Origin: Oceanispirochaeta sp.
GTDB lineage: Bacteria; Spirochaetota; Spirochaetia; DSM-2461
Direction: 5' to 3'
Assembly: GCA_963666275.2 (NCBI GenBank)
Contig: CAXXOA010000001.1
Location: 1,568,001 to 1,632,000, forward strand
Length of the DNA stretch: 64,000 bases
Shown here piece after piece: positions 47,693 to 64,000 of this stretch. The notes under the pieces were generated by a model. It saw only the letters and a list, made by a program, of their open reading frames with translations. It did no database searches and had not been told where the DNA came from. Numbering within the stretch: the first letter of the stretch is position 1; every line of letters starts with the position of its first letter. The translations under genes and the position numbers were made by a program.

Positions 47693-47733
47693 CAGTATGA
47701 GATTACATTTTTTCTGCGACAAGATCCGGGTAG

Positions 47734-47777
47734 TGTAGGATGATGCGATAATACTAACAGAAACCTGCGATAATTCC
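47734..47777 (+). repeat. putative prophage terminus: TG followed by two tandem 22-bp imperfect repeats (core TGCGATAAT)
   Basis: TGCGATAAT at 47744 and 47766, 22 bp apart; 13 of 22 positions identical between the units. Confidence 0.55.
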
Positions 47778-47965
47778 GGGATTTTCAGGTTTTTAACGGG
47801 ATATATCGGAAGACCGATTTAGAAAAGCTTTCATAATATGAGAAAAAACGCGGTGGGGAAATCTGCCGGATCCTTTCAGTAATTTGAATTACTAACCACC
47901 ATTACATTACGATTTCAGCCTCTTCCATTTACTCTGATTTCAGATATGAAAGATGAGGTGGAATC

Positions 47966-48379
47966 GTGATCCTACAGACAAGCCCTGAGCTGGATCGGCA
48001 AATTAAAAAGAATGGATGCTATTTTATGAGCATCCTCTTTCTGGCAGGCCAGAAATCCTGTCAAAGCTATCACACTGAAGATATCACGCGGATTAAGAAT
48101 GAAGCAATAAAAAAAGGATACCTTAGAAAAGATTGTTTTGTAAAAGATCCTGAAGGGATATTTCTTCTTGCCGGACTTCCTGTCCAATATACGAATACTC
48201 ACGAACCACCCTCAAGAAAAGTTGAATCCGATGAGCTTGAAATTCTCTATTACCGCTGGAAAGATGCCGGTCATTTTGTCGCAGGGGAAAACGGGGAAGT
48301 AGCTTACGACCCGATGGGAATGTCCAATTCTGTACAGTTGGGAGAGCTTCAGTCAAAGCGGATCTTTAAAGTTTTATGA
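47966..48379 (+). CDS. DUF261-like / papain-fold (C39-like) protein, candidate endolysin
   Basis: Q..GCYF, GHFV and YDP motifs; GAGGTG SD with GTG start; first gene of the lysis cluster. Confidence 0.55.
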   Translation: MILQTSPELDRQIKKNGCYFMSILFLAGQKSCQSYHTEDITRIKNEAIKKGYLRKDCFVKDPEGIFLLAGLPVQYTNTHEPPSRKVESDELEILYYRWKDAGHFVAGENGEVAYDPMGMSNSVQLGELQSKRIFKVL

Positions 48380-48420
48380 ATCTCCGAGAGTTTCTCTGAG
48401 AAATAAATCATTAGGAGTAA

Positions 48421-48747
48421 ATGGTGAAAAATCTTACATCAATTATTGGGCTGATTTTAATTGTACTGGCAGTTCTGTGTGGGTATTTTATGGACTTCCC
48501 ACAGACTTGGATGCTTCAGGTTGTATCGGCCTCTGCTGGTCTGGCCATGGTCTTTCTGGATCAGGTTAAAAAGCGGGATAAAAAGGATTATTGGAAGGTC
48601 TATGTGATCGGTTTTATTTTATCCATAGGAACCATACTTGCGATATTCGGTGGAGTAAGTGATGCCACAATAACAACTATTATCGGAGCTGTGCTTATTG
48701 TTGCTGGAGCGGCTGTTGGAGTTTTGGCCGGTGTCAAAAATGGCTGA
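48421..48747 (+). CDS. four-TM small membrane protein, holin/antiholin candidate
   Basis: Four hydrophobic segments in 108 aa; AGGAG SD; lysis-cluster position. Confidence 0.55.
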   Translation: MVKNLTSIIGLILIVLAVLCGYFMDFPQTWMLQVVSASAGLAMVFLDQVKKRDKKDYWKVYVIGFILSIGTILAIFGGVSDATITTIIGAVLIVAGAAVGVLAGVKNG

Positions 48748-48949
48748 AATTAAACCCTGGTATCGATCCACAAAGAAGATGACTGGAATAATCTTCCTGG
48801 CCAATGGATTAGGAATGAGCTGGTTCTCATTTTTTCAGCAGAATCCAAATGATCCGGTAGCAATTATCGGGATGTTGCTGGGAACAGGGATAACTCTTCT
48901 AGGCATAAAAACAGCTGGCGGCGTGATGGCTGCAAAGTTTGGATTATGA
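48740..48949 (+). CDS. two-TM holin-like protein (start ATG 48740)
   Basis: MAEIKPWYRSTK N-terminus followed by two TMs; overlaps neighbouring genes. Confidence 0.55.
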   Translation: MAEIKPWYRSTKKMTGIIFLANGLGMSWFSFFQQNPNDPVAIIGMLLGTGITLLGIKTAGGVMAAKFGL

Positions 48950-49212
48950 GCTGGATCACTACGGCAAAAGTAGTTTTGATTCTCAGCCTGGTAGGTATTA
49001 CTGCTTACCAGGCTTTACGGATTAAGGCTCTTAAAAAGGACAACAAACAGAAGGACAAGGATGTTGAAACAGCCGAACAAAAAAACAAAGAAGCTGTCAC
49101 TACTCACAATGAACAGCAGCGGATCAGAGAAGAAGCTCAGAAGGAGAAAAAAGAGCTTGAAAATACCGATGATGACGATCTTGCCGATCGTGCTGACAAT
49201 CTTTTTCCTTAG
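48946..49212 (+). CDS. inner-membrane spanin (Rz-like) candidate
   Basis: Single N-terminal TM plus a charged coiled coil; overlaps the lipoprotein gene. Confidence 0.6.
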   Translation: MSWITTAKVVLILSLVGITAYQALRIKALKKDNKQKDKDVETAEQKNKEAVTTHNEQQRIREEAQKEKKELENTDDDDLADRADNLFP

Positions 49213-49444
49213 TTGCCAGACCTCTTCTTCAGAACCTTATAAGGGAGGTTACTCTGATTTTGACATCCCGATTCAGCCGGAAATTAGATCCGTTGATTTT
49301 ATGCGACTGGAGGATAAATCAGGGTTCTTCCTGATCAACCAAGAGTACAGAAATTTAGAGCACAATATTATCGAGTACCGTCGGTATATCGGAGAGCTGG
49401 AATCACAGCTTGGAATACCTCCTGAAGGTAGGTTTAATGGATAA
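49169..49444 (+). CDS. lipoprotein, outer-membrane spanin (Rz1-like) candidate
   Basis: MMTILPIVLTIFFLS-C lipoprotein signal starting inside the upstream gene in another frame. Confidence 0.6.
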   Translation: MMTILPIVLTIFFLSCQTSSSEPYKGGYSDFDIPIQPEIRSVDFMRLEDKSGFFLINQEYRNLEHNIIEYRRYIGELESQLGIPPEGRFNG

Positions 49445-49826
49445 ATATATTCTACCTCTTGCTATCCAGGCTATCGGTACTACCGGGTCGGTAATTGGTG
49501 TGGTTTGGAGGATACAGAAAGCTCAATCAGACAAACATAAAGCAGAGCTGGAAAACCTCTCTAAAAAACATGATATAGAGATGAAAGCTTTACAGGAATC
49601 CTTCAAGGAAGAGCTTATTTCAATCAGAGAAATCATGTCTGAATGGGAGAAGCAGCGGAGGAATGGAGATCACGCTCTACATGAAAGAATCAATCAAATT
49701 GAAAGTAATGCTTATAAGGAAATAAACACCCGTCTTTCTCATATAGAAGGCCAGTTGAAAGGTCTTAATAATGTCACTCGGGTGATGGAAGAATGGCTTA
49801 TTAGAAATGGAGGAAAAGTCGAATGA
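49437..49826 (+). CDS. TM + coiled-coil protein, positional equivalent of Mu gp25 (DUF2730-like)
   Basis: N-terminal hydrophobic helix, coiled coil ending LSHIEGQLKGL; immediately before the gp26-like gene. Confidence 0.5.
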   Translation: MDKYILPLAIQAIGTTGSVIGVVWRIQKAQSDKHKAELENLSKKHDIEMKALQESFKEELISIREIMSEWEKQRRNGDHALHERINQIESNAYKEINTRLSHIEGQLKGLNNVTRVMEEWLIRNGGKVE

Positions 49827-50116
49827 AAACTGATGTATTCAGCCCTAACCAGAGACGGATCATCCTGGAAGCTCTCGAAGGGGATAATGACTACTCATTG
49901 AACAATGGAATCCTGCAGAAAATCCTGGTTGAATTCGGTCATGGAGTCGGCAGAGAAAAGACGGATAAAGAAATTGCCTGGCTTGAAGAAAAAGGTCTTG
50001 TAACTGTGGAAGAGCTGACCGATAGCCTTAACGTCGTAAAGTTGACATCCAAGGGTTTGGATGTAGCTCACGGGCATGACAGAATTGAAGGTGTTGAACG
50101 CCCCGGCGTGGAGTAA
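49823..50116 (+). CDS. Mu gp26-like winged-helix protein
   Basis: RRIILEAL...YSLN...IAWLEEKGLV...LTSKGLDVAHG...GVERP pattern. Confidence 0.85.
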   Translation: MKTDVFSPNQRRIILEALEGDNDYSLNNGILQKILVEFGHGVGREKTDKEIAWLEEKGLVTVEELTDSLNVVKLTSKGLDVAHGHDRIEGVERPGVE

Positions 50117-50118
50117 AT

Positions 50119-50673
50119 ATGGGGCGAAAATCCAATATAGACAAGCTCCCGGATGAGCTGAGAGAGAAGCTCCGTGAGCTGCTTAATAATTCTTCTGTAA
50201 CCCAGGCTGAAATCGTTGAAGTCATCAATGAAAAAGCAGGGGAACCTGTCCTCAGTACCAGTTCGGTAAACCGCTATGCCCTGCGGATGCAGAAACAGAT
50301 TGAGAAGACCAAACAAGCTCGGGAAGTAGCTGAAGCCTACATGAATAAAATGGGTGGAAATACCAGAAATCAGCTTGGAAAAGTTGTGAACGAGCAGATC
50401 CGTCTGATGAGCTTTGAGCTGATGACGGACATAGAGGAATTGAAGGAGAACGGAGAGACCGATCCAGGCCTAGTAATAGACCTGATATACAAAGTCAGCC
50501 GGGGGCTCAAAGAGCTGGAACAAGCTGAAAAACTTAACGCAGAAAGGGAATCCGATATCAGAAAAGAAGCCCTGAATGAAGCTGCTGCAACGGCAGAAAA
50601 ACAGCTAAAAAAAGAAGGTCTTTCCAATGATTCGATAATCCGTATAAAGAAGGAGATTCTGGGTATATCATGA
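50119..50673 (+). CDS. DUF3486 / Mu gp27-like protein (putative terminase small subunit)
   Basis: MGRKSNIDKLP...STSSVNRY...GLS...IKKEILGI. Confidence 0.88.
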   Translation: MGRKSNIDKLPDELREKLRELLNNSSVTQAEIVEVINEKAGEPVLSTSSVNRYALRMQKQIEKTKQAREVAEAYMNKMGGNTRNQLGKVVNEQIRLMSFELMTDIEELKENGETDPGLVIDLIYKVSRGLKELEQAEKLNAERESDIRKEALNEAAATAEKQLKKEGLSNDSIIRIKKEILGIS

Positions 50674-52172
50674 CCGACCAGGAACTGCTGAATATTGAGA
50701 TCCTTTTGCCCTATCAGGCTGCATGGTCAAAAGACCACTCCAAGGTCAAAGTCTGGGAAAAATCCAGGCGTATCGGGGCCAGTTACGGAGAAGCCTGCGA
50801 GACCGTTTTGGAAGCTGCAAAATCCAAAACTGAAGGCGGCCAGGATACTTTCTATCTTTCCTACAATAAAGAGATGACCCAGCAGTTCATAAGTGACTGT
50901 GCTATGTGGGCCAAAATCCTTAATAAAGCAGCTTCGGAAATTGAAGAAGTTGTCATCAATCATGAGGATAAGGATATCACAGTTTACCGCCTGACCATGG
51001 CCTCCGGATTTCAGATTTGGGGTCTCCCGTCAGAGCCCCGTTCTCTCCGTTCAAAACAGGGCCGGGTTATTATCGATGAGGCCGCTTTTGTAGAGAATCT
51101 CAGAGAGCTTTTGAAGGCGGCTATGGCTCTTACCATGTGGGGTGGAGTTGTTCGGATCATGTCTACTCATAACGGAGAAGACAACCCCTTCAATGAGCTG
51201 ATCAAAGAGATCAAAGAGGGTAAAAAAAACTACTCTCTTCATAGAACTACAATCCAGAATGCTCTGGATAAGGGCCTTTATAAAAGGATATGCCTGGTAA
51301 GCGACAGGGAGTGGTCTGAAGAAGCTGAAAAGGAGTGGCTTGATGAGCTGCTTGATGACTACGGAGACGGAGCAGCAGAGGAGTTGTACTGCATCCCCAC
51401 CAAAGGCGGAACCAGGTATATTTCCCGCTCACTGGTGGAATCCTGTATGGACAAGGATATTCCGGTTCTAAGCTACGAATGCACTGATGATTTTACCTTT
51501 GAATCAGACTTTGTTAGAGAAAGAAAAACCAATGATTGGCTGGAGGACAATCTCCTTCCTATCCTGAAGAACCTGCCCAATGATCCGGGCTTCATCGGGA
51601 TGGACTTTGCAAGGAGCGGAGACCTTTCTGAAATAGCTCTTTTTAATGAAACAGAAGGCCTCCGTTTGAGAGCTATCTGCTACCTTGAATTGAGGAATGT
51701 TCCCTTCTCCCAGCAGTTCCAGATTTTCTGCTATGTATGGGACAAGCATCCCCGGTTATTTGCAGCATCTCTTGATGCCAGGGGAAACGGCCAACACCTG
51801 GCGGAGCTTGCCGCTCAGAAGTACGGCCCGGCCTATGTGAATCAGGTGATGATCTCCAGGGCTTTTTATATGGAGTACATGCCAAAGTACAAAGCCAAGC
51901 TGGAAGACAGGGAGATGACCCTGCCCGGCTCTCCCGACATTATCGATGATCACAGAACAGTTGTTCTGGATAAGGGTGTTCCCACCATCTCGGAGAGGAC
52001 TTCCCAGGGCGGCGACAAGAATAAAAAGAGGCATGGAGACTCTGTCATTGCCGGTGTAATGGCCAACCATGCTTACGAGAATGACGACAGCTCTCACCAG
52101 AGCTATAAATACGAAGCGGTGAAAGCTTCAAACCCCTGGAGAGGAGGAACCAGCCGTGGCCGATGGAGATAA
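50670..52172 (+). CDS. terminase large subunit (Mu gp28-like)
   Basis: LLPYQ, Walker A KSRRIGAS, Walker B IIDEAAF, STHNG, nuclease motifs GMDFARSGD and RHGD. Confidence 0.93.
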   Translation: MTDQELLNIEILLPYQAAWSKDHSKVKVWEKSRRIGASYGEACETVLEAAKSKTEGGQDTFYLSYNKEMTQQFISDCAMWAKILNKAASEIEEVVINHEDKDITVYRLTMASGFQIWGLPSEPRSLRSKQGRVIIDEAAFVENLRELLKAAMALTMWGGVVRIMSTHNGEDNPFNELIKEIKEGKKNYSLHRTTIQNALDKGLYKRICLVSDREWSEEAEKEWLDELLDDYGDGAAEELYCIPTKGGTRYISRSLVESCMDKDIPVLSYECTDDFTFESDFVRERKTNDWLEDNLLPILKNLPNDPGFIGMDFARSGDLSEIALFNETEGLRLRAICYLELRNVPFSQQFQIFCYVWDKHPRLFAASLDARGNGQHLAELAAQKYGPAYVNQVMISRAFYMEYMPKYKAKLEDREMTLPGSPDIIDDHRTVVLDKGVPTISERTSQGGDKNKKRHGDSVIAGVMANHAYENDDSSHQSYKYEAVKASNPWRGGTSRGRWR

Positions 52173-53670
52173 AACCAAGAAGAAAGATCTGAAAAATGAG
52201 GTAGCAGCAGCTCAAACTATCGGTGTTCGCCAGGCTATCCAGTGGCCGGATATAACCTCCGGACTGGATCCGGTCAGACTGGCTGAAATTCTTAGGGCTG
52301 CCAGAGAAGGCAAAGCAGATGAATACCTGACTTTAGCTGAAGAGATTGAAGAGAGGGACCTTCACTACAGGTCTGTACTATCCACAAGGAAGCAGGCTGT
52401 TGAGGGTCTTGTTCCTACTATCATACCGGCTAGTGAAGAGAAAAAGGATCTGGATCTGGCCAAAGCTGTAGAAACGGATATTCTGGGCAGAGACGATTTT
52501 CCCGACCTAATAAAAGATGCCCTTGACGCTCTTGGCAAAGGGTATTCGGTTCATGAAATTCTCTGGAATACGAAAAGAACTCCCTGGAAACCCGATCGGA
52601 TCCTTTTCAGGGATCCCCGATGGTTTGAATATGATGAGCTTACAGGTAAAAAGCTCCATATGAAAGAAGATTATGGAACGACCCTTATTCCCCTGGCGGA
52701 AAGGAAGTTTATAGTCCATGAACCGCACCTGAAAACAGGGCTGCCGATACGGGGAGGATTAGCTCTCCCGATGGCTCTCTATTTTCTGATCAAATACTAC
52801 GATATTACAGCCTGGACCGCATTTATAGACCGCTACGGCCTGCCGATCCGGGTGGGAAAGTACGGTAGGAACGCTTCCGATAAAGACATTACCACTCTGA
52901 AGAGTGCCATAGCTCATTTGGGTGAAGATGTGGGAGCTGTTATTCCTGATTCAATGCTGATTGATATTATTGAGTCAAAAACATCCGGAAAAATTGAGCT
53001 GTATAAAGAGATGGCCGACTGGGTGGACAAGCAGGTAAGCAAGCTGGTACTGGGTCAAACCATGACAGCCGATGACGGGTCCAGCAGGAGTCAGGCGGAA
53101 GTTCATGACGATGTCCGCCAGGATATCCTGGAAGCCGATGCCAGGCAGCTGGAAAAAACCCTTAACCGGGATCTGATCAGGCCTTATATTGATTTGAACT
53201 GGGGTCCTCAGGAAAAATACCCAAGATTAAGAATCCCCTGTCCTGATACTGACGATATTACCGCTTGGGTGGATAATATTGAAAAGCTTGTTCCTCTCGG
53301 TTTGACTGTTAAGGCTGATGAAGTCAGAAGTAAATTGGGATTGTCCAGACCAGATGAAGGAGATGAGATCCTTCAACAAGCTCCAGCGACAGTTCCTGCT
53401 GAAAAGGATATGGGAACCGCTCTCAATGCCGAGCAGGATAAGGATATATCTGAGCTGGATCTTCTGCAGGAGGACAGTGATTATTCCGAGCTGTCGGATG
53501 ACATATTAAAAGCTGTTAACAAGCTGGCCGGGAAGTGCAGCACTCTGGAAGAGTTTCGCGACCGGTTGCCCGAGCTGCTCTCCCTATGGGATATGGAAAA
53601 AGCCGCCGACATCCTGACTCTCGAAACCTGGAAAGCCAGAGCCTTGGGAGATGCTGATTTTGCCGACTGA
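52156..53670 (+). CDS. portal protein (DUF935 / Mu gp29-like)
   Basis: EEIEERDLHYRSVLSTRK, YGLPIRVGKY, SKLVLGQT, AEVHDDVR. Confidence 0.93.
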   Translation: MADGDKTKKKDLKNEVAAAQTIGVRQAIQWPDITSGLDPVRLAEILRAAREGKADEYLTLAEEIEERDLHYRSVLSTRKQAVEGLVPTIIPASEEKKDLDLAKAVETDILGRDDFPDLIKDALDALGKGYSVHEILWNTKRTPWKPDRILFRDPRWFEYDELTGKKLHMKEDYGTTLIPLAERKFIVHEPHLKTGLPIRGGLALPMALYFLIKYYDITAWTAFIDRYGLPIRVGKYGRNASDKDITTLKSAIAHLGEDVGAVIPDSMLIDIIESKTSGKIELYKEMADWVDKQVSKLVLGQTMTADDGSSRSQAEVHDDVRQDILEADARQLEKTLNRDLIRPYIDLNWGPQEKYPRLRIPCPDTDDITAWVDNIEKLVPLGLTVKADEVRSKLGLSRPDEGDEILQQAPATVPAEKDMGTALNAEQDKDISELDLLQEDSDYSELSDDILKAVNKLAGKCSTLEEFRDRLPELLSLWDMEKAADILTLETWKARALGDADFAD

Positions 53671-55084
53671 TACCATTGTTCCGGAAGAAGCTCTGAATTT
53701 CCTGAGAGCAAAGCAGCTGAAACCGGCTTTCAGCTATGAAGATGTCTGGCTGGAAGAACACGCCAATAATTTTACCGTTGCGAAAGCCATGCAGTTGGAT
53801 GTTCTGCAGGACTTTAAGGATGCCATAGACCTGGCAATTGAGAATGGCCAAACTCTGGATCAATTCCAAAAAGAGATAACTCCTACCCTGATGAGAAAAG
53901 GCTGGTGGGGTAAAAAAACAATGGTAGACCCGGCTGACGGCAAGGAAAAGGCTGTCCGTCTGGGTTCTGACCGCCGGTTGAAAACTATTTACAATGTAAA
54001 TACCCGCCAAGCATACAATGCCGGAAGATGGGAACGTGGCCAGCGATCCGCAGCGCATACCCATATAATGTACCTGGTCGGCCCCAGTACACACCACAGG
54101 AAAGAGCATTTGTCTTGGAATGGTTTGGTTCTCCCCAAGGATCATCCTTTTTGGAATACCCATACCCCAATGAACGGATGGGGCTGCAAATGTTATTTCA
54201 GATATTTAACAAAGCAGAGGCTGGAGAAGCTTCGGAATGAGGGAATGCCGGATAATACGCATATTGTGGAAGGAAGGCCTTCCGGAACCATTCAAATTAA
54301 GGAAAATGCTCAGGATATTCAGTACAGGCAGTATATCAATAAGCGGTCCGGAAGAGTTTATACAGCTCCTGCAGGTATTGATCCGGGGTTTGAATGGAAT
54401 CCTGGATCCGCTAGAGGTACAGCAGTTTCTTCTTCCCTGCAGGGTAAGGTAAAATCTTTACAGCAAAGCTACCCGGCAACTCCGAAAGGGGTTCCCGTAT
54501 CAGAAGCTTTTTCAAAGATCACTCCCACCTATAAAACCAGTGTGAACCGGGCTCTTACAGCTATTAATAAGGTTCATGGAGACGGCAATCTCCCGAAGAT
54601 CCCAATTCAAGCAAGCAGGTCAAAGCAGTTTTATGGGGCTTTTGAATACAGTAGATACTCACGGGAAGCATCTGCCATTAAACTGGCCAGTAAAGATCAT
54701 CCGGAATTGACGCTGATACATGAAATAGGTCATTTTCTGGATAACAACGGGCTCCCAGGTAAAGGGTTCTGTTCGGAATTGAACCTTTCGGAGATTATAC
54801 CTTTGATGAAGGCCATTGATAATTCCAACGAAATTCAAGTTCTTAAAGCACTGCCATCCAATAAGAGTATTAGCTATCTGCTGAACCCTGCCGAACAGTT
54901 TGCCAGGGCTTACGCCCAGTACATTGCCTGGAAAACGCAGGATCCAACTTTAATTTTGCAGCTGAAGGGTATACAATTGAATTCAGGGAATCCTGTAAAC
55001 CGGTGCAAGCAATGGAATGAAGAAAACTTCCTTCCCATTGCCGCCGAGTTTGATATTCTGTTTAAAAAGATGGGATGGTTATGA
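53651..55084 (+). CDS. MuF (Mu gp30-like) head morphogenesis protein with a C-terminal zincin-like metallopeptidase domain
   Basis: FTVAK, RLKTIYNVN, HPFW..H.PMNGWGCKC, GIDPGFEWNPG; then HEIGH and YLLNPAEQFARAYAQY. Confidence 0.88.
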   Translation: MLILPTDTIVPEEALNFLRAKQLKPAFSYEDVWLEEHANNFTVAKAMQLDVLQDFKDAIDLAIENGQTLDQFQKEITPTLMRKGWWGKKTMVDPADGKEKAVRLGSDRRLKTIYNVNTRQAYNAGRWERGQRSAAHTHIMYLVGPSTHHRKEHLSWNGLVLPKDHPFWNTHTPMNGWGCKCYFRYLTKQRLEKLRNEGMPDNTHIVEGRPSGTIQIKENAQDIQYRQYINKRSGRVYTAPAGIDPGFEWNPGSARGTAVSSSLQGKVKSLQQSYPATPKGVPVSEAFSKITPTYKTSVNRALTAINKVHGDGNLPKIPIQASRSKQFYGAFEYSRYSREASAIKLASKDHPELTLIHEIGHFLDNNGLPGKGFCSELNLSEIIPLMKAIDNSNEIQVLKALPSNKSISYLLNPAEQFARAYAQYIAWKTQDPTLILQLKGIQLNSGNPVNRCKQWNEENFLPIAAEFDILFKKMGWL

Positions 55085-55365
55085 TACTGAAAGGAACAGC
55101 AGCAGACGGAACTCCATACTCAATAGACTCAGACGCTATTACCCAGGAAGATATTGATTCTTTCGGTAAAGAAAATGATTGTGTCTGTTGTGTCAGATGT
55201 CTTATACCTGTTACTGATGAAACAAAACAGTATGAAGATCCGGAAAGTCCCGGCATGATAGCAGCCTATCCTTTCGACGAAGAAAATGAGCTATATCACC
55301 CCTATGGAAAAGATGGTTGGCCAGTTGAAAAAGTTCTCATCGATAAAAATGGAAGCCTTGTCTAA
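55081..55365 (+). CDS. small acidic Cys-cluster protein, candidate immunity partner of the MuF toxin domain
   Basis: ATGA overlap with the MuF stop; D/E-rich; CVCCVRC. Confidence 0.55.
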   Translation: MILKGTAADGTPYSIDSDAITQEDIDSFGKENDCVCCVRCLIPVTDETKQYEDPESPGMIAAYPFDEENELYHPYGKDGWPVEKVLIDKNGSLV

Positions 55366-55407
55366 TTTACTTTACAAATACCCGCCTTTGTTGTAATTAA
55401 CTTAACT

Positions 55408-55863
55408 TCAATTCATCAACTCAGAATCTTCTTTAAACCTTCTGACTTCATCTTCAATATTTTCTTTTAGGTGATGCATTGAAACAAAGTTTTCAATGAA
55501 ATAAATTAAGCAAAAAATCAGATATACAGAAAAAAGAATATAAGTATCAAATTTGATGATTTTCCATTCAAACTGATATTGATAGTCTTTTAGCAGAAAC
55601 AGCACAGTCGAGATAGCAAATAAGACGATAAAAGTAATCTGAATGGAATGGAGCTGAGGACGGAATCTCTGAACAAATTTCTCATTTGGGATATCTGCAA
55701 ATGAAAAAGACATTATTTGACTTAATCCCAACGAGAACATGATTCCCAAAATAGTAAAAATTACAGTTAATGATTGTTCTGTAAAACAAACAGGGACATA
55801 GGATAGAAAAAAAGAGATTAATAATATTATTGAACTTCTAATTAACCACCTTGCCATTATCAA
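55408..55863 (-). CDS. four-TM membrane protein (RexB-sized), prophage cargo
   Basis: Four hydrophobic segments including LGIMFSLG; overlaps the end of the upstream 308-aa gene. Confidence 0.7.
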   Translation of the reverse strand: MIMARWLIRSSIILLISFFLSYVPVCFTEQSLTVIFTILGIMFSLGLSQIMSFSFADIPNEKFVQRFRPQLHSIQITFIVLFAISTVLFLLKDYQYQFEWKIIKFDTYILFSVYLIFCLIYFIENFVSMHHLKENIEDEVRRFKEDSELMN

Positions 55864-56764
55864 TATCCTTTAAGATCTTTCTCATCTCTGTTTCAATTTC
55901 CGGTTCATTGAAACTTTTCCCTATATGTTCAAACTGACGTTCTATTTTAATCAGATAATCAGTTCCTTTAAGGGTTTTAGCACCTTTCCCTTTAATTATA
56001 ACATCTTCACTATCGACAATTCTAAGCAAGGTGTCTAGGGCCTTCCCATCCTTTTTCTTGAGTTCTTTTTTGTTAATTTTCAGATGAATAGTAGCTGTGA
56101 GTACATCTTCAAGCTCTAGAGCTTTCAGATCCTTAATATCTTTCAGCATATTTTGAAGGACTGCCCTTTTTACCTGTAGAATCTTTGTTTCTTCTTTTGA
56201 TAATTTATTCTGGAAATATCCCTCTGCGATTTGAATTTTCTGAATGTCTCCCATTGGGATAGTGTTCTCTGTTTTATGTTTTGGAGTTATTGAACACTCA
56301 TATTGTCCTTTTTTATTCTCCCTGAGGAGCCAATTAAAATAAGTTTCCAATGCTTTCCTATTATTTTTTGCTGATGTCATGATCAGATAACCTTCATATA
56401 TGCAGAAGAATATATAATCTTTGATAGAACCTGCAGATTCCTCATCAGATAATTTTACCATTTCATTCATGGAAACAGTCTTCTGGGTCAGATGAATATT
56501 TGATACGTTTGTACCTTCTCCCGGTCGCAGGCGAACAAAAGAACCAAACAAAAATCCATTAGAATGGTTGAAATATGGAATAAAGTCACCTTCATCCTGA
56601 TTGCTGATTACACCATCTTCCTGATGGTACTCCATAAATCGGTCCTTGATGGTTAATGAACTGTTCAGAATATTAAAAATCAATTTCGCAAACTTCGGTT
56701 CTTTTACCTGAGTTGTCCTGGATTCAATTTCATGGACCTGAAGTGTTAACTTTCTCTTTGCCAT
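55838..56764 (-). CDS. soluble Lys-rich protein, RexA/RdgC-fold candidate, prophage cargo
   Basis: Strong SD (AGGTGAGGAG); 308 aa; family assignment is a by-eye resemblance only. Confidence 0.6.
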   Translation of the reverse strand: MAKRKLTLQVHEIESRTTQVKEPKFAKLIFNILNSSLTIKDRFMEYHQEDGVISNQDEGDFIPYFNHSNGFLFGSFVRLRPGEGTNVSNIHLTQKTVSMNEMVKLSDEESAGSIKDYIFFCIYEGYLIMTSAKNNRKALETYFNWLLRENKKGQYECSITPKHKTENTIPMGDIQKIQIAEGYFQNKLSKEETKILQVKRAVLQNMLKDIKDLKALELEDVLTATIHLKINKKELKKKDGKALDTLLRIVDSEDVIIKGKGAKTLKGTDYLIKIERQFEHIGKSFNEPEIETEMRKILKDIDNGKVVN

Positions 56765-56802
56765 TAATGATTCTCCTCACCTTTAATTTGATTGCTATAA
56801 AT

Positions 56803-57702
56803 TCAATTCGTCACAGACTCTGTGTTGTCTCTAATTTGTTTTATATGAGTTCTGATAGAATCCAGTTTCTTATAGTCAGGAAATAACTGAGAAGATTCTT
56901 CAGGGGCTGAGAGAGATGGATGAAACTCTGTACCTTTATTAATCATCTCTGATATTTTTTCTATGGAGTACATCAATCTCTTTATATATTCAGGATCTTT
57001 TTCAATACCGTTATTATCTATGAGATAATTTGCTTCAGCTTCAATCAGCTGATCTAAGAGCTTTTTCTGAGCAGCAACCAAATCTTTAACAGACTCATTT
57101 TTCATTTCAAGATTTTTGATTTGGCCAGTAAGATGATCGCCTTCAAGTTTCTTTTTTCTGATAACACAGCCTGACCAAATTAATCCAGCTATTAGTTTTA
57201 ATGCTGCAGAAGTTCCAAATGTAAGAATTAACCAATTTGTACCAAGGTCTACTCCAGTAAATTTCACTGAAGGAGTTCCTTTTAACCCAGAAAGCGTCTG
57301 GTCAAATATTTTTCCATATTCTGTAACCTCATTTACGAAACCATGGTAATCGTGAAAATCTGGAAGGAGAATAAAAAGAGAGTTTTCATCAGCTTCAGTA
57401 CTAACGGCTTTGAGAACTTTCAGGACACTATTCATTTCAGCTCTAAGTTGTCCCATGAAAGCCTCAAACTGTTTTGCATCATTTTGGGCAAGAGTTATAG
57501 ATTCACCATGAAAGTCCTCAGGAAGATATTTGCGAATGTTAACTAACTTTTCTGTAAAATGAGGCATCTCTGATATTACCCGTAATGTTTTATTTAACGA
57601 ACTAACCTTCTGGTATATCTTTGTCGAACCTTGAACTGTTGGTGTTAAACTCAGTTTTGCATTAGAGGAAGAAATAATTTGGATTTGCTGGTTTATTCGC
57701 AT
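56803..57702 (-). CDS. hypothetical prophage cargo protein (central hydrophobic segment + coiled coil)
   Basis: 299-aa AT-rich ORF; VDLGTNW motif followed by a hydrophobic stretch. Confidence 0.7.
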   Translation of the reverse strand: MRINQQIQIISSSNAKLSLTPTVQGSTKIYQKVSSLNKTLRVISEMPHFTEKLVNIRKYLPEDFHGESITLAQNDAKQFEAFMGQLRAEMNSVLKVLKAVSTEADENSLFILLPDFHDYHGFVNEVTEYGKIFDQTLSGLKGTPSVKFTGVDLGTNWLILTFGTSAALKLIAGLIWSGCVIRKKKLEGDHLTGQIKNLEMKNESVKDLVAAQKKLLDQLIEAEANYLIDNNGIEKDPEYIKRLMYSIEKISEMINKGTEFHPSLSAPEESSQLFPDYKKLDSIRTHIKQIRDNTESVTN

Positions 57703-57742
57703 AAGTTTTGGTCCTATTGAGATACATTATTTTTTAAAAAGT

Positions 57743-58006
57743 TCAGCCTCTTTTCTTAGAATACGCAGCTTCTACCTTTTTCCGGCCAGCATCTGTAATC
57801 TGGATGACTTTTGACTTATCGTCGTACTCCATATATCCCTGGGCTATGTAGGACGTGGAGTTTGTTCTGTTGCTGATTACATTATTCGTCAGCTGTGGGT
57901 CAATGCTGTCAAAAAGGGGTTCCATCTCTTCAGTATTGAATGAATCCTTTTTATAAAGGAAGTTCAAAAAGAAATCTTCATAATACGCCTGATTGTTAAA
58001 TGCCAT
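57743..58006 (-). CDS. small winged-helix-like protein
   Basis: AAGGAG SD; C-terminal GYME...IQITDAGRK wing pattern. Confidence 0.6.
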   Translation of the reverse strand: MAFNNQAYYEDFFLNFLYKKDSFNTEEMEPLFDSIDPQLTNNVISNRTNSTSYIAQGYMEYDDKSKVIQITDAGRKKVEAAYSKKRG

Positions 58007-58084
58007 ATTTTATTCTCCTTTTGATCCATCATATGCGGGTCTTATTTCTTCCATGAAATTAACCCCATCTAATAGATTCTTATT

Positions 58085-58264
58085 CTAAGAATCATTCCCC
58101 AACCGGTTTAAAATCAGCTGAGAAAAGTTTTCCAAATACTCCAGCCTTTTTACATCTTCATAATTGCTTTCGTACTCTTCTGTTTTATCAACTATATCCA
58201 GGGACAAACGGAGCAGCTCAATTTTCCGCCAGGTCTTATCATCGATGTCATCTATTGCACTCAT
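58085..58264 (-). CDS. 59-aa acidic helical protein absent from the ORF track (MSAIDDIDDKTWRKIELLRLSLD...)
   Basis: Translated by hand; its ATG overlaps the TAA of the upstream gene (TAATG) and it fills an otherwise empty gap. Confidence 0.6.
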   Translation of the reverse strand: MSAIDDIDDKTWRKIELLRLSLDIVDKTEEYESNYEDVKRLEYLENFSQLILNRLGNDS

Positions 58265-58674
58265 TAGTATCCCTCATTCCAGCCAGGTTTCTCTACCAAT
58301 AACTCTTTTGAAATATTATCATTATCCCAAGATGGTCTTTCACACAGGGTCATATTTCTAAAATTACCCTGCTGCTTATGGCCGTCATCATCAAACCAGA
58401 CACAGAGAGACTCACGATTTCCGCTATCAATCACTGTCATATCAGTCAATGAAGGGATGAAGCTTACAACAGTCCCAGGTCTGAGAGCATGGTTTTTAAA
58501 ACCTGATAAAGCAGGGGTCAATTCATTCAGAACTTTGAAAGGAAACTCAGCTTCTTTATACCGTTTCTTTTTATCTAGCCAGCAGCATAAGAAAAGCCCG
58601 CCATCCTCTTCAGCAAGCACAGCCATTTCCGGACCGCCTGAATTGAGCCTGACAATACTATCTATACCAAACAT
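58264..58674 (-). CDS. tandem YodC/DUF2158-like domain protein
   Basis: VRLNSGGPEMAV...CCWLD and a second copy GTVV...DMTV...CVWFD. Confidence 0.75.
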   Translation of the reverse strand: MFGIDSIVRLNSGGPEMAVLAEEDGGLFLCCWLDKKKRYKEAEFPFKVLNELTPALSGFKNHALRPGTVVSFIPSLTDMTVIDSGNRESLCVWFDDDGHKQQGNFRNMTLCERPSWDNDNISKELLVEKPGWNEGY

Positions 58675-58709
58675 GTTTCCCTCCGATTTAATCTATGCTG
58701 TTCCATTTC

Positions 58710-59111
58710 TCAGAAACTAACCGGGTCCAGGATTTCTGATCCACCCTCACTCCAGAATATTTCTAATTTCCCATCAGGGCGTATATAAAATGTTTCATCA
58801 TCGTCGCCAACTCTTTTGAAATGATTCTCATCAAGAAACTCGATTTCTTCCTTTTTCCATTGAAACCATAGTGGGTACGTTGTAGCTAAATAACTCTTAT
58901 CAGCTGGAATGTAATGAATGAATCTGCCAGAACCATATTGCTCTGGAGAAACCCAAAGGTTGTCTACATCGGTTATATCTATATCGATGTCTCCATATTG
59001 GCCACCTTCATGGCCAGGACCTTTATTCTGAAGTTCTGTAAAGGTTATATCCTGGGCAAAAGCGGCAACAATGAAAAATGACAATATGAGGCTGCTGATA
59101 ACTTTCTTCAC
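58710..59111 (-). CDS. exported hypothetical protein (prophage moron)
   Basis: Signal peptide MKKVISSLILSFFIVAAFA-QD; AAGGAG SD; 11 bp downstream of the repressor. Confidence 0.75.
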   Translation of the reverse strand: MKKVISSLILSFFIVAAFAQDITFTELQNKGPGHEGGQYGDIDIDITDVDNLWVSPEQYGSGRFIHYIPADKSYLATTYPLWFQWKKEEIEFLDENHFKRVGDDDETFYIRPDGKLEIFWSEGGSEILDPVSF

Positions 59112-59122
59112 TCAATACTCCT

Positions 59123-59806
59123 TTAATACGGATGCCTGTGAATCCATCCGATTACCTTCCCTTCAACCCGTACCACATCAGAATCCGCATCCACTACTTT
59201 TTTTTCATAGCTGGGATTTTCCGAAATAATGGTGAGTTTTCTCTCAATCGGGTCAAACTCCAAACGCTTTACAAATAAATCCGAACCGATGCTGATTACG
59301 TAGATCCCGTCGGCCCGGAGTTCTCCCTGGGAAAAGATGACATAGTCCCCATCGAATATTTCCACCCCTGTCATTGAATCTCCCCGGACCTCTACAACTT
59401 TAATCGAGTGCCTGGGGTATGGGTGTATGATCTTATCTAAAATGGGGATCGTTACATCTGAGCTGTACTCTTCAATATAGTCCTGCCCAGCCCCGGCAGA
59501 TATTTTTTGTTCCAGCACCGGAACCATGACAACATCATCCCGATCTGAAAGTACAATTTCTTTTTTCTCTGTTTGAATACTAACTGCACGATTATTATCT
59601 GAAAGCAACATTTTCCCTTGGCCTGTTATCAACCAATGCAGATTTATGCCGATATGAGATATTTTTTCTTTTATCTCATCTGGAACAGAACGCTTCTCTG
59701 TCTCATAACCAGCATATGTAGACTGCCCGAGGCCTAACTTTGCTGCAAAGTCAGACTGATTTAGCTCAAAATGAGATCTTATTTCTTTTAAACGACGACC
59801 AATCAT
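59123..59806 (-). CDS. CI/LexA-like phage repressor (XRE HTH + S24 peptidase)
   Basis: LNQSDFAAKLG...YE HTH, WLITGQG, SAGAG cleavage site, VRGDSM, VKRL. Confidence 0.93.
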   Translation of the reverse strand: MIGRRLKEIRSHFELNQSDFAAKLGLGQSTYAGYETEKRSVPDEIKEKISHIGINLHWLITGQGKMLLSDNNRAVSIQTEKKEIVLSDRDDVVMVPVLEQKISAGAGQDYIEEYSSDVTIPILDKIIHPYPRHSIKVVEVRGDSMTGVEIFDGDYVIFSQGELRADGIYVISIGSDLFVKRLEFDPIERKLTIISENPSYEKKVVDADSDVVRVEGKVIGWIHRHPY

Positions 59807-59811
59807 TAAAA

Positions 59812-59865
59812 ATATGCCACCATGCGATTATTATTGTTGACTTATAACGCGTATTGCGATATTCT
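59812..59865 (+). promoter_or_regulatory. early promoter with two operator-like imperfect inverted repeats
   Basis: TTGACT (59837), 17 bp, TATTCT (59860); ATAACGC-N5-GCGATAT at 59844-59862 and a weaker copy at 59812-59830. Confidence 0.6.
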
Positions 59866-59960
59866 TTAATCAGGTTAAGAAATTAACCACAAAACCCCCA
59901 AAAAATGGGAAGCGGTTACGCCCTGCAAAGCTAATCCACTTCCCGTATAGGAGTATTACT

Positions 59961-60050
59961 ATGTTACAGCGGAGAAAAACAGACCGCAAGTGCAAAACAG
60001 CATTTTTTTTTGGAAGGCGGAAAAAACTCCTTCGGCAGGAGGATTGCTGA
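59961..60050 (+). CDS. 29-aa basic peptide MLQRRKTDRKCKTAFFFGRRKKLLRQEDC (first early ORF, not in the ORF track)
   Basis: AGGAG SD at 59949; stop overlaps the next start (TGATG). Confidence 0.45.
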   Translation: MLQRRKTDRKCKTAFFFGRRKKLLRQEDC

Positions 60051-60283
60051 TGAAGTTTGACAGAAAAGAAGTTGAGAAATTATGCAAATCCTGTGTTAAC
60101 GACCCTATGGATCCAGACATCGACAACGATTGCGATGATTGCATAAATGGCTGTGAATACCTGGAAACCAGGATCCACCAGTTGGAAAGGGAAAATCAGG
60201 AGCTTGTTGATCAAATTGCAGAATCCAGAAAAGGATTCATCAATGCGGAAACAAGAAATGCCAGGGAGGTTTTCTGTGGATAA
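60050..60283 (+). CDS. Cys-rich hypothetical protein with coiled coil (start ATG 60050)
   Basis: AGGAGG SD; CKSC...CDDC...C. Confidence 0.65.
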   Translation: MKFDRKEVEKLCKSCVNDPMDPDIDNDCDDCINGCEYLETRIHQLERENQELVDQIAESRKGFINAETRNAREVFCG

Positions 60284-60671
60284 TAAAAAGATTTGTGCCT
60301 GTTGCGGAAAGCCGGCGGAAGGCCCCGGCAGTGTTGAGATCGGCGTCAAAGGTAATTTCACCCCTTTTTGCTCCTTAAGCTGTTTTAATAAACATATGAA
60401 AGAGAATGCAAAACTGGTCAAAACTTTGGCTGACAGGAAGGAGCTCCTTGCCAGAAAAAGAAATTATAAGAAAGAACGAATCAAACAAGTTCTTTCCCTG
60501 GATAAGGTAGAGACCAGTGATGATTTCTATTTCCTCTATGAAAGCCTTACTGCAAAACAGAGGGAAACATTAGCCACGAAGTTTTTCAGCCATTTGATTG
60601 CTAAAAATAACTGTGTTGTTTCGGACATTCTTAATGAAGTTGAATCAATAGCCCCTAGGGTAAAAGAGTAA
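60276..60671 (+). CDS. TRASH/MYM-type zinc-finger protein (start GTG 60276)
   Basis: GGAGGT SD; CACCGK...FCSLSC. Confidence 0.6.
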   Translation: MDNKKICACCGKPAEGPGSVEIGVKGNFTPFCSLSCFNKHMKENAKLVKTLADRKELLARKRNYKKERIKQVLSLDKVETSDDFYFLYESLTAKQRETLATKFFSHLIAKNNCVVSDILNEVESIAPRVKE

Positions 60672-60673
60672 GT

Positions 60674-60889
60674 ATGCAGGAACCGAAGCATTTGAGGAGA
60701 GGACGAAACGACTATGCCGCTGTTTGCCAGGGAAAGGAAGCTTTTGAAACCTACCGGCTGGCAGAGAAAGTGAAAAAGTCCATGTGCCGGAGAACAACCG
60801 GCGGACTTGACGTTTATCACTGTCCCCATTGCCGGAAGTTCCATATCGGACGGAATAAGTTCAAAGGGAAATATTATGGTTGTAAATAA
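60674..60889 (+). CDS. small phage zinc-finger protein
   Basis: CQGK...YHCPHCRKFHIG. Confidence 0.65.
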   Translation: MQEPKHLRRGRNDYAAVCQGKEAFETYRLAEKVKKSMCRRTTGGLDVYHCPHCRKFHIGRNKFKGKYYGCK

Positions 60890-61106
60890 TATCGTTATAC
60901 GAAATAGAAAAAGTTCAAGATACGAGCTTGCCATGCAGATCCGCCAGTGTCTGACAGACGGAAGGGTCTGGACCGTGGGAGAAGTGGCCAGGGAGCTGGG
61001 ATCCAGTTATCAGCAGATCCAGAATGCTCTGACCTCTCTGACCAACCTGGAGCCGACCCTGGCGGAAGAAGATGACGGAGCCGTATTCATGGTGATAGGA
61101 GGATAA
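60876..61106 (+). CDS. winged-helix HTH protein (start ATG 60876)
   Basis: WTVGEVARELGSSYQQIQNAL. Confidence 0.65.
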   Translation: MVVNNIVIRNRKSSRYELAMQIRQCLTDGRVWTVGEVARELGSSYQQIQNALTSLTNLEPTLAEEDDGAVFMVIGG

Positions 61107-61111
61107 AACTG

Positions 61112-61360
61112 ATGGGAGGGGTAGTAGCAATGGAAGCAAAACCGACTAGAGATGTAAACACTGCCGTAAAAATCCAGTGCGTTATGACCAGAATGGGAAT
61201 AAGCCAGACCCAGCTGGCAAGGAATATCGGGGCGACCCTGCCCATGGTAAACCAGGTTATCTGGGGAACCAAGCAGAGCCGCCGGGTACAGAGTGATATT
61301 GCCAGATCCTTGGGCTTCAAGTCCTGGAACGAACTGAAAAAGCATAAGGAGGTTGTATGA
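61112..61360 (+). CDS. Ner/Cro-like HTH regulator
   Basis: GISQTQLARNIG...VNQVIWG...SRRVQSDIARSLG. Confidence 0.8.
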   Translation: MGGVVAMEAKPTRDVNTAVKIQCVMTRMGISQTQLARNIGATLPMVNQVIWGTKQSRRVQSDIARSLGFKSWNELKKHKEVV

Positions 61361-61647
61361 TCAATGTAGATCCTGAAATAATCGCTGCCAAGGTGACCGA
61401 TCAACTTGGAAATCCCAGCCAAAGCAAAGACCTGGAACTCCTTGCTCTGGACATTGCAAACGCCGCTTCTGTGGAGTTCCTTCAATGGCGGGGCTATGAA
61501 GGGTTGTGGGAGGTAGTCTCAATAATACGGCTTTCTCCAAAGCAGCGGCATCAACTGAAAGAGCACATCAAGCTTATCAAAATTGAGGATATTCTCAGAG
61601 CCAAGACAGCCAAAGTCGGGCCTATGCAGCAGGAGATGTTTGTATGA
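61357..61647 (+). CDS. hypothetical phage protein
   Basis: AGGAGG SD; ATGA overlaps at both ends. Confidence 0.7.
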   Translation: MINVDPEIIAAKVTDQLGNPSQSKDLELLALDIANAASVEFLQWRGYEGLWEVVSIIRLSPKQRHQLKEHIKLIKIEDILRAKTAKVGPMQQEMFV

Positions 61648-61940
61648 GTACCTACACCAACAATGCACAACAGAGGATATGTCGTCTGGTGGAAGAGCTG
61701 GCCGGGAATGAAGACAAAGGGCTGAGCCTGACCGAACTGGCCGAGAAACTCGGGATTTCCACCAGTGCGGTATTCCGGGACTTGAAGAACCTGGAAGAAG
61801 CCGAATGGGCCAGACAGATCGGATCCAACTGGGCGATGGCCCCCCGCGCCGCCGTACCGGCAGTGAAAATCAGAAGAAACCTGGACTCCCTGTTAGGGAA
61901 AGTCAACAAAATCAACAAAGATTACCTGGGAGGTGAATGA
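61644..61940 (+). CDS. IclR-like HTH protein of B3-type transposable phages
   Basis: GLSLTELAEKLGISTSAVFRDLKNL; directly upstream of DUF3102. Confidence 0.8.
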   Translation: MSTYTNNAQQRICRLVEELAGNEDKGLSLTELAEKLGISTSAVFRDLKNLEEAEWARQIGSNWAMAPRAAVPAVKIRRNLDSLLGKVNKINKDYLGGE

Positions 61941-62893
61941 TTATGGGAAAAAAGAAGATTGCTCCTGAAAACAACATTGAAGTGACAGAGGTGGATATTC
62001 CTGCAGCACCGACCCCTGAAGAGCTGGATATGCTTCAGGTTCATCTGGCGGATGTTGATTTGAAATTTGGAGCTGGTAAGGATTACAACAGAGAGAGAAT
62101 TGAGGGAGAAATCTGTACTTATGCTGAGCAGTATAAGAAATCAATTCTTGAAACAGGAAAACGGTTAATCCTCCTGAAAGAGCATGAAGGGCATGGTGGT
62201 TTTCTAGAGAGTCTGAAACGCCTTGACATTGATCCAAGAACTGCCCAGAACATGATGAGCGTGGCTCGTAAGTTTATTGATGAATCAGGAAATGCGAAAG
62301 CGCTTGCGTATTTGCCTCCAACCAAGCTTTACATGCTGGCATCATTGGAAGATGAAGAATTAGATGCTCTTGAAGAAGGAGAAGGTGTTGCGGGTCTAAC
62401 GATTGAGGACGCTGAAAAGTTGTCTTCCAGAGCTCTGAAAAAGAAACTTCAGGAAGTAAGAGCTGAGAAAAAGAGGCTTGAAGAACAGCATCAGCAGGAA
62501 ATTGAGATCAAGGACCAGCTTCTGGAGGATAAGAATAAGAAAATTGATGAGCTGGACGGGAAGCTCCGAATCAGCACTGATCCTTCCAGGTGGAACGAAA
62601 AAGCCGAAGAATACCTGGACCGTCTTCACAGGATTATCCCACAGTCCAGCAGGATTATGGGAGAGATGGCGGAAATTATCGAAGGGATCCAGGCAGTTGA
62701 GACAAAAGACTGGGAACAGTCCCAGAGGATCGTGCTGGAACAGTTCCGGTTCACCTTTGATCAGATCAACGATGACCTGGATAAAATCGACAACATGCTT
62801 CGGTTTGCCGCCCCTGAAGGAAACTCTGTTTTCCACTCTATGAATGCCCTGAGACCTTTATCGACCTCTGAGGAGGAGGCTCTTGATGTTTGA
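61937..62893 (+). CDS. DUF3102 domain protein
   Basis: ETGKRLILLKEHEGHGGF...RTAQNMMSVA; directly upstream of the transposase. Confidence 0.85.
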   Translation: MIMGKKKIAPENNIEVTEVDIPAAPTPEELDMLQVHLADVDLKFGAGKDYNRERIEGEICTYAEQYKKSILETGKRLILLKEHEGHGGFLESLKRLDIDPRTAQNMMSVARKFIDESGNAKALAYLPPTKLYMLASLEDEELDALEEGEGVAGLTIEDAEKLSSRALKKKLQEVRAEKKRLEEQHQQEIEIKDQLLEDKNKKIDELDGKLRISTDPSRWNEKAEEYLDRLHRIIPQSSRIMGEMAEIIEGIQAVETKDWEQSQRIVLEQFRFTFDQINDDLDKIDNMLRFAAPEGNSVFHSMNALRPLSTSEEEALDV

Positions 62894-64000
62894 AGAATAT
62901 ATTCCTGACCTGCAGGGCGCTGGTCGGGGTGACAGGGGTCAAATCATCGATAACATCACCAACCTTTACGGCTGTTCCAAAGATAAGGTCTACCGGGAAT
63001 TGAAAAAAGCCGGATGGACATCCGGACGGAAACGCCGGAGCGATGCGGGAGAGGTTACTGTTTCCAATGAAGCCCTGGAAGCCTTAGGGGCGCGTCTGCT
63101 GGTTGGTGTGCGGAAAAATGGGAAGTGTACAACCGATATTCCTACGGCCAGGCATGAACTGGAGTTGTCCGGGTATCATTTCGGCGTGAGCAATGGACGG
63201 CTGGCAAGCTTGCTCAAAGAGCGTCATCTGGACCTTAAAACCCAGCTGATTCCTACTCCCCATACCAGGTTGAAGTCGCTGCATCCCAACCATGTTCACC
63301 AGGTGGATCCATCCATGTGTCTACTTTACTATCTTCCCAGAGGCGGCCAGAAGATTATCGAGGATGATGAAGCTTACAAAAATAAGCCTTTCCTGGAAGG
63401 GAAAGCCCACTTGAAGATTTGGAGGTATGTGCTGACCGACCACTACTCCTCCAGTATCTGTGTCCGCTATTTCCAGAGAGCCGGTGAGCGGATGGATACC
63501 CTGTGGGAGTTCCTGCTTTATGCCTGGAGTGTTAAGGACGATCCTGCCTATTGTTTTCATGGTGTACCATCGATCCTTCTGATGGACAAAGGATCTGCCA
63601 ACCTGGGAGGCGGTGTTGTAAACGGTCTTAACTCTCTGAGAGTCAGACAGCTTACCCATGCCCCCGGAAAGCCCAGGGTAAAAGGCCAGGTTGAGAATGC
63701 CAATAATCTGGTGGAAAAGCTTTTTGAAAGCCGGTTGAAAACCGACCCGGTGAAGGGCGTTGAAGAGCTGAATGTAAGAGCCAGTTGGTGGTGTGCTTCC
63801 TACAATGCCAATTTGATCGACAGTTATGATTCTACCCTTCGCAGGTCAAAGACATCCCGTCTTGAGCTGTGGAGCCGGATTACCACCAGCCAGCTGAAGG
63901 AACTTCCGGAAGAGGCCAAAGGCCTGCTGGTTGCCAATAGCGAGACCCGTAAGGTAGCCGGGGATCTGACAGTCAGCTTTGTACACCCCAAGTTGAAAGA
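62886..64000 (+). CDS. MuA-family DDE transposase (B3/BcepMu type), 3'-truncated by the window edge; absent from the ORF track
   Basis: Hand translation MFEEYIPDL...RKRRSDAG...SLHPNHVHQVDPS...YKNKP...TDHYS...GVP..LLMDKGSAN...PRVKGQVE; GAGGAGG SD; no stop seen up to 64000. Confidence 0.93.
   Translation, partial: MFEEYIPDLQGAGRGDRGQIIDNITNLYGCSKDKVYRELKKAGWTSGRKRRSDAGEVTVSNEALEALGARLLVGVRKNGKCTTDIPTARHELELSGYHFGVSNGRLASLLKERHLDLKTQLIPTPHTRLKSLHPNHVHQVDPSMCLLYYLPRGGQKIIEDDEAYKNKPFLEGKAHLKIWRYVLTDHYSSSICVRYFQRAGERMDTLWEFLLYAWSVKDDPAYCFHGVPSILLMDKGSANLGGGVVNGLNSLRVRQLTHAPGKPRVKGQVENANNLVEKLFESRLKTDPVKGVEELNVRASWWCASYNANLIDSYDSTLRRSKTSRLELWSRITTSQLKELPEEAKGLLVANSETRKVAGDLTVSFVHPKLK

Follow-up and report, generated by a model that had tools for sequence, protein, structure and literature searches.

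The RexAB system of phage lambda (PDB 8TWQ; PMC11077077) consists of a soluble protein of about 300 residues with the RexA/RdgC fold, followed by a protein of about 145 residues with four transmembrane helices, and its genes lie downstream of the repressor in the same orientation. RexABpp of Pseudomonas putida P1 (PP_5643-5644; PMC12894663) combines a RexA-fold protein with a four-transmembrane partner a few genes after a CI-like repressor, and was assigned to Rex by structure, RexApp matching RexA at 98% by HHpred. RexABpp was shown to defend and to damage the membrane in a RexB-dependent way. It requires both genes; its RexA is a DNA binder, and when RexA is in excess, growth stops and dye enters the cells, provided that RexB is present. 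The actinophage pairs Sbash gp30/31, CarolAnn gp44/43 and Butters gp30/31 (DUF4747) also join a cytoplasmic protein to a four-transmembrane partner in conserved synteny (PMC7542560), and Kiwa (KwaA/KwaB) pairs a four-transmembrane protein with a soluble DNA-binding one. Here we describe a pair of genes, A and B, from an Oceanispirochaeta sp. contig, lying in the 64,000-nucleotide stretch of DNA that we call the window. A and B form a real, conserved two-gene cassette that is RexAB-like by fold, partner and position and does not belong to the lambda RexA and RexB sequence families. Judged on structure predictions and analogy, the pair is probably an abortive or growth-arrest anti-phage system of the RexAB type, in a previously unnamed sequence family.

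The preliminary description of this DNA, made from the sequence alone, had proposed an overlapping, AT-rich module of a soluble 308-residue protein and a four-transmembrane protein of 151 residues. Both open reading frames (ORFs) were found where it had placed them, on the minus strand (Table 1), and full-length homologues known for each identify them as real genes. Their GC contents are 0.35 (A) and 0.30 (B), against approximately 0.46-0.48 in the head genes. A Kyte-Doolittle scan gave zero hydrophobic segments in A and four in B, at residues 7-25, 32-50, 73-91 and 109-127 in the 151-residue numbering; the basic loop at 51-72 and the charged C-terminal tail of B are both predicted to be cytoplasmic. 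The proposed lengths and segments stand, except that B more likely has 149 residues. A length of 151 requires a TTG start at 55863 (55408-55863), and we favour the ATG at 55857 because AAGGA lies 8 nt upstream of it and most close homologues have a matching methionine. This start gives a 20-nt overlap with A, exactly as in 39 of 110 homologous pairs, and translation of B is likely coupled to that of A through the AAGGA inside the end of A.

The association of the two genes is strict. The fetched loci (some contigs occur twice) yielded 115 A ORFs with 200 residues or more, which formed 65 clusters at 90% identity; five with less than 150 nt of downstream sequence were set aside. A search with a profile built from the window B and 15 close homologues placed a B homologue directly downstream of A in all 60 remaining clusters (E<1e-5), bearing out the proposal of a two-gene module. 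With clustering at 50% identity, B stood beside A in 25/25, one cluster having no room for it. All but one of 110 A-B pairs overlap or lie within 2 nt of each other in first-start ORF calls, and B measures 140-174 residues across the family. B was never seen without A among these loci, which were fetched through A. RdgC is, to our knowledge, a recombination regulator without an obligatory membrane partner. The constant presence of B beside A separates the present family from RdgC (2OWL/2OWY) and its phage homologues.

Gene A has a predicted split two-domain fold of the RexA/RdgC type, with RexA as its best fold match. At the sequence level it matches phrog_3482, a family of unknown function, over its full length; no Pfam or NCBIfam family matched, PADLOC gave one match at E 0.14, and there was no plasmid match. 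PDB sequences gave nothing at E<0.2 for A itself or for the profiles of A and B. Among 1.84 billion cluster representatives, a profile built from 11 close homologues found 415 of the A family (clustered at 50% identity) at E<=0.001, of which 269 also pass 1e-10, and 143 full-length matches out of 150 listed make up the alignment A4 used below. Among 20 proteins looked up, named members include proteins from Serratia, Haemophilus, Paludibacteraceae and Campylobacteraceae. The pair is widespread and not a spirochaete speciality. Its closest named homologues occur in Treponema assemblies, consistent with the spirochaete host. The distribution is patchy: 1/61 related genomes, 5/401 genomes of the phylum and 42/5,426 E. 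coli genomes carry it. Weak matches to PDC-M18B, SduA, PalH and MSC_0882 were dismissed as hydrophobicity or chance.

The position of the pair recalls that of lambda rex. A same-strand, repressor-like gene lies upstream in at least 35 of 52 loci (29 with an S24 domain or cI annotation, six with an XRE-type helix-turn-helix only), a hand count that is a lower bound with 90 proteins scanned of 111 upstream ORFs listed. The 52 derive from 61 cluster representatives (four minus-strand loci skipped) after removal of nine with too little upstream DNA. In the lambdoid phage PhiR68_2 a homologous pair (hhalign 99.5% and 99.4% to the window family; this clade was sampled solely through the A6 patterns) stands immediately after cI, the slot that rex occupies in lambda, with the same 20-nt overlap as in the window. 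In Acinetobacter phage TCUAN1 the pair comes two genes after the repressor and B is only partly annotated. The remaining 17/52 loci have no repressor upstream among the ORFs scanned. Several loci, judged mostly by eye, have late genes around them (portal/F, tail tube, tape measure, lysozyme), and those designated G317 and G100 lie outside any evident prophage, G317 adjoining restriction-modification-like genes. Pairwise identities, compared descriptively in 23 loci (24 minus one lacking B at a contig end; 253 non-independent pairs), gave rho 0.86 for A against B and 0.16 for A against the repressor, from which we conclude that the pair moves as a unit and swaps repressors. E. coli temperate phages have reportedly been tested for defence (Brenes & Laub 2025). 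PhiR68_2 may, as we guess from its ECOR13 host, come from that study, in which case the pair may have been tested there.

The two genes thus stay together in phages from several groups of bacteria, and they likely make up an anti-phage system that annotation has missed and that would act by damaging the infected cell's membrane. With lambda RexAB and RexABpp as models, the pair would be expressed in the lysogen together with the repressor. A would act as a clamp-shaped, DNA-binding dimer that senses incoming phage DNA or DNA-protein intermediates and switches on B, and an oligomer of B would then damage the membrane, arrest the infected cell and stop the infection, giving protection against unrelated phages. 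In E. coli, family A is represented by WP_024187901, whose RefSeq record shows no coding sequence for B. DefensePredictor (PMC13092281, Tables S5 and S10) includes this protein among its predicted novel defence genes (log-odds 5.3 and 6.2), as a single-gene prediction without HHblits or Foldseek match. In the available text its accession is absent from the tabulated cloned units, and RexA goes unmentioned in the main text. A literature search found no description of the A-B pair.

Several observations weigh against assigning the pair a Rex-type function, for which we infer both anti-phage activity and the sensor and effector roles. The whole-chain TM-score of A against RexA is just 0.33-0.38, with a root-mean-square deviation of 16-17, which a different domain hinge might explain, and the same fold occurs in DNA binders not involved in defence (RdgC, CENP-N and Iml3). 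A complex prediction with two copies of A and one of B scored 0.02, 'no answer', and is not used as evidence; a pore formed by B is hypothetical. Sequence similarity to lambda RexAB is detectable in neither gene. Against the single lambda sequences, hhalign gave 0.1% for A with RexA and 0.35% for B with RexB, and probabilities of 0.1-0.35%, again for single sequences, indicate no similarity of A or B to Butters gp30/gp31. Pfam RexA (PF15969), DUF4747 and DUF6731 matched 0/143 A proteins (E<=0.01), PADLOC RexA and KwaB matched 0/143 (E<=0.05), and PADLOC RexB matched 0/64 B proteins (E<=0.05). Activated RexB of P. putida acted without measured membrane depolarisation, and two-hybrid assays detected no RexA-RexB binding (PMC12894663). 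DefensePredictor uses gene neighbourhood and is therefore not independent of the context evidence; 45% of its cloned predictions were validated (PMC13092281). Functional data were found for no family member, and the prophage link is inflated by a sample drawn mostly from a viral-contig collection.

The RexAB-like label of the preliminary description is accordingly upheld in part: the RexA/RdgC-type fold of A, the four-transmembrane partner and the homologue in the rex slot support it, and profile comparison supports neither the suggested segment-level resemblance of A to lambda RexA nor a link of B to RexB. Two further differences from lambda are a gap of 15 nt between rexA and rexB, as against the overlap of approximately 20 nt in this family, and the B3/Mu-like transposable prophage that carries the window pair. 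RexABpp could be compared by description (PMC12894663); RexBpp has at least 181 residues, as deduced from a Y181H mutant, compared with the 140-174 found here, and a primer-based scan for the RexABpp locus matched no viral contig. The actinophage pairs, of which Butters gp30/gp31 was compared in sequence, differ in that A has no DUF4747 match. DUF4747 and DUF6731 Rex-like proteins are neighbours of A by language model only.

Somewhat unlikely, in our estimate, is a reading in which A represents a large RexA-fold lineage with a membrane-protein family of its own, forming a translationally coupled plug-in cassette whose membrane subunit would be unrelated to RexB and might follow another logic, such as a sensor as in Kiwa. 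Such a cassette would range over lambdoid phages, B3/Mu-like phages and defence neighbourhoods on chromosomes, in groups as far apart as spirochaetes, enterobacteria and Bacteroidota. We also consider it unlikely that the main role is to tune the prophage's own lysogeny-lysis switch, in which case A would bind DNA or the repressor near the control region and favour lysis, B would restrain A, and exclusion would be absent or a side effect. Lambda RexA does bias the CI-Cro switch without RexB, and its authors suggest that exclusion may be a by-product (PMC11077077); the frequent location downstream of repressor-like genes agrees with this. However, A proteins that are 85-90% identical stand beside repressors that are just 17-27% identical, a third of the loci (17/52) lack an upstream repressor among the ORFs scanned, several lying among late genes or outside any evident prophage, and RexABpp had no effect on its own repressor promoter (PMC12894663).

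Kiwa-like logic is, we judge, slightly less probable still. B would sense membrane disturbance at phage entry, and A would bind phage DNA and stall replication without killing the cell. Kiwa does comprise a four-transmembrane sensor and a DNA-binding effector (10.1101/2023.02.26.530102), a single weak match to KwaA (E 6e-4) occurs among 64 B proteins, and A has conserved basic residues (R42, R78, K229, K232, R248 and K260). On the other hand, DUF4868 (Pfam, E<=0.01) was detected in 0/143 A proteins, which with the KwaB result speaks against Kiwa membership at the sequence level; RexA is the best fold match of A, and in those RexA-fold pairs that have been characterised the effector is the membrane protein, in contrast to the membrane sensor of Kiwa. 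B ends in a short charged tail where KwaA has a C-terminal beta-barrel (10.1101/2023.02.26.530102). KwaB is not among the fold matches listed for A, which is no evidence either way. The Kiwa gene order, which we take to be kwaA-kwaB, is the reverse of that seen here. Least credible of all is entry exclusion or toxin-antitoxin-like maintenance, with B blocking DNA injection or serving as a membrane toxin checked by A. In its favour, injection is often blocked by small inner-membrane proteins from prophage cargo, the A:B ratio would be fixed by the coupled overlap, and no B lacking A was seen in loci fetched through A. Against it, entry-exclusion proteins usually act single-handed, and gene order and fold match Rex. 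In RexABpp, moreover, excess A activates B instead of neutralising it (PMC12894663).

The pair forms the last genes of the leftward cargo of a B3/Mu-like transposable prophage, in agreement with the location first proposed at the end of the repressor-oriented cargo, and shares its strand with the CI-like repressor, four genes away (Table 1). The prophage begins with TG at 47734 and ends with CA at window-equivalent position 81934, with an inverted end TGTAG/CTACA and repeats of TGCGATAAT close to both ends, within 47728-47760 on the left and G000:C1 1649900-1649940 on the right; an alternative CA at 82036 fits the GGGTAG duplication too, but without the inverted end. Six-base duplications mark B3-type transposition (PMC8705779), and the duplication is accompanied here by the TG...CA ends and by a Mu-type transposase and head genes. 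In the window the prophage comprises lysis, terminase, portal and F genes, the cargo, the repressor, early genes and the transposase, from 62883, with a Mu-type gp27 among its genes; head- and tail-like ORFs, read by eye, continue beyond. In X3, a run from another study, one contig departs from the window sequence at 47734. X3 holds a related prophage that has other sequence in place of the DUF2158/133-residue stretch and many differences in the F gene. Over the piece 53153-58006 there are 37 differences, and of the 36 listed, zero fall within the pair (one contig, depth 4.3).

Table 1. Features of the A-B locus and of the prophage that carries it (window coordinates unless stated)
Feature	Position	Strand	Remarks
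Gene A	55838..56764	-	308 residues, ATG start, soluble; predicted RexA/RdgC-type split two-domain fold; phrog_3482
Gene B	55408..55857	-	149 residues from ATG; four predicted transmembrane helices
Shine-Dalgarno-like AAGGA	55866..55870	-	Within end of gene A, 8 nt before B ATG
Shine-Dalgarno-like GAGGAG	56773..56778	-	8 nt upstream of gene A
AT-rich cargo gene, 299 residues, no known function	56803..57702	-	Directly upstream of A
Three cargo genes (87 residues; DUF2158, 136 residues; 133 residues)	57743..59111	-	Between repressor and pair
CI-like repressor (helix-turn-helix + Peptidase_S24)	59123..59806	-	
6-bp target-site duplication GGGTAG	47728..47733	+	Second copy at G000:C1 1649935-1649940, outside window
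Left 16.3 kb of 34,201-bp B3/Mu-like transposable prophage	47734..64000		Right end at G000:C1 1649934

For the 299-residue gene we obtained neither a family match nor, in the other loci searched, a homologue; it is retained in the X3 prophage, lies outside the conserved pair and is possibly a further defence gene. The DUF2158 protein (58264-58674) contains two tandem copies and occupies a swappable slot downstream of the repressor. No evident Shine-Dalgarno sequence precedes the repressor ATG at 59806, so that the message is possibly leaderless, as is that of lambda cI. Promoter-like sites were not above chance (11 versus 15.7 in shuffles), and one terminator-like site was found, at 58618-58596 on the minus strand. 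The gene order is unlike that of Mu, with lysis, terminase, portal and F to the left of the repressor and early region and protease, capsid and tail-like genes to the right. The insertion lies near the 3' end of a minus-strand host gene, which encodes 391 residues with the prophage and 386 across the empty site. The Mu F-like head protein (53651-55084) has a long C-terminal extension that is its most variable part relative to X3, and its gene is followed by an acidic gene of 96 residues, a layout like that of MuF toxin-immunity pairs.

Individual loci show further variation. In L004 (429-1625) A shares its frame with a Sel1-repeat segment that precedes it, 398 residues in total, as a fusion or as two genes in one frame; P0101 (452 residues) has an unexplained C-terminal extension; and L087, L107 and L029 carry an intact B next to an A that a frameshift or stop has split. 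L007 has a second four-transmembrane gene after B (4735-5214) with a weak RexB match (E 3.5e-4), and in a Treponema prophage (L002, 7463-8891) the PADLOC candidate PDC-M11A/B directly follows the pair. In L128 (NZ_AP025214) and L024 (ON531988) B is unannotated or given as a short fragment in the public records.

Such records hide the pair from gene-based tools, and the models of Pfam, NCBIfam and PADLOC 2.0 all miss the family, which thus marks an annotation blind spot in which B is missing or truncated in some records. As the architecture was already known, the novelty of the pair lies in its sequence family, not in the kind of system. With it, Rex-type systems reach into the transposable prophages of spirochaetes. 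The way in which RexA switches on RexB is still unexplained some 70 years after T4rII exclusion was seen (PMC12894663). The hundreds of diverged, strictly paired sequences open this question to covariation analysis, and PhiR68_2, a culturable E. coli phage with the pair in the rex slot, opens it to deletions. Should the membrane subunit prove unrelated to RexB, RexA-fold clamps would have recruited membrane partners more than once, and the pair would provide a second model, native to E. coli, in which to study how proteins of the RexA type set off their membrane partners.
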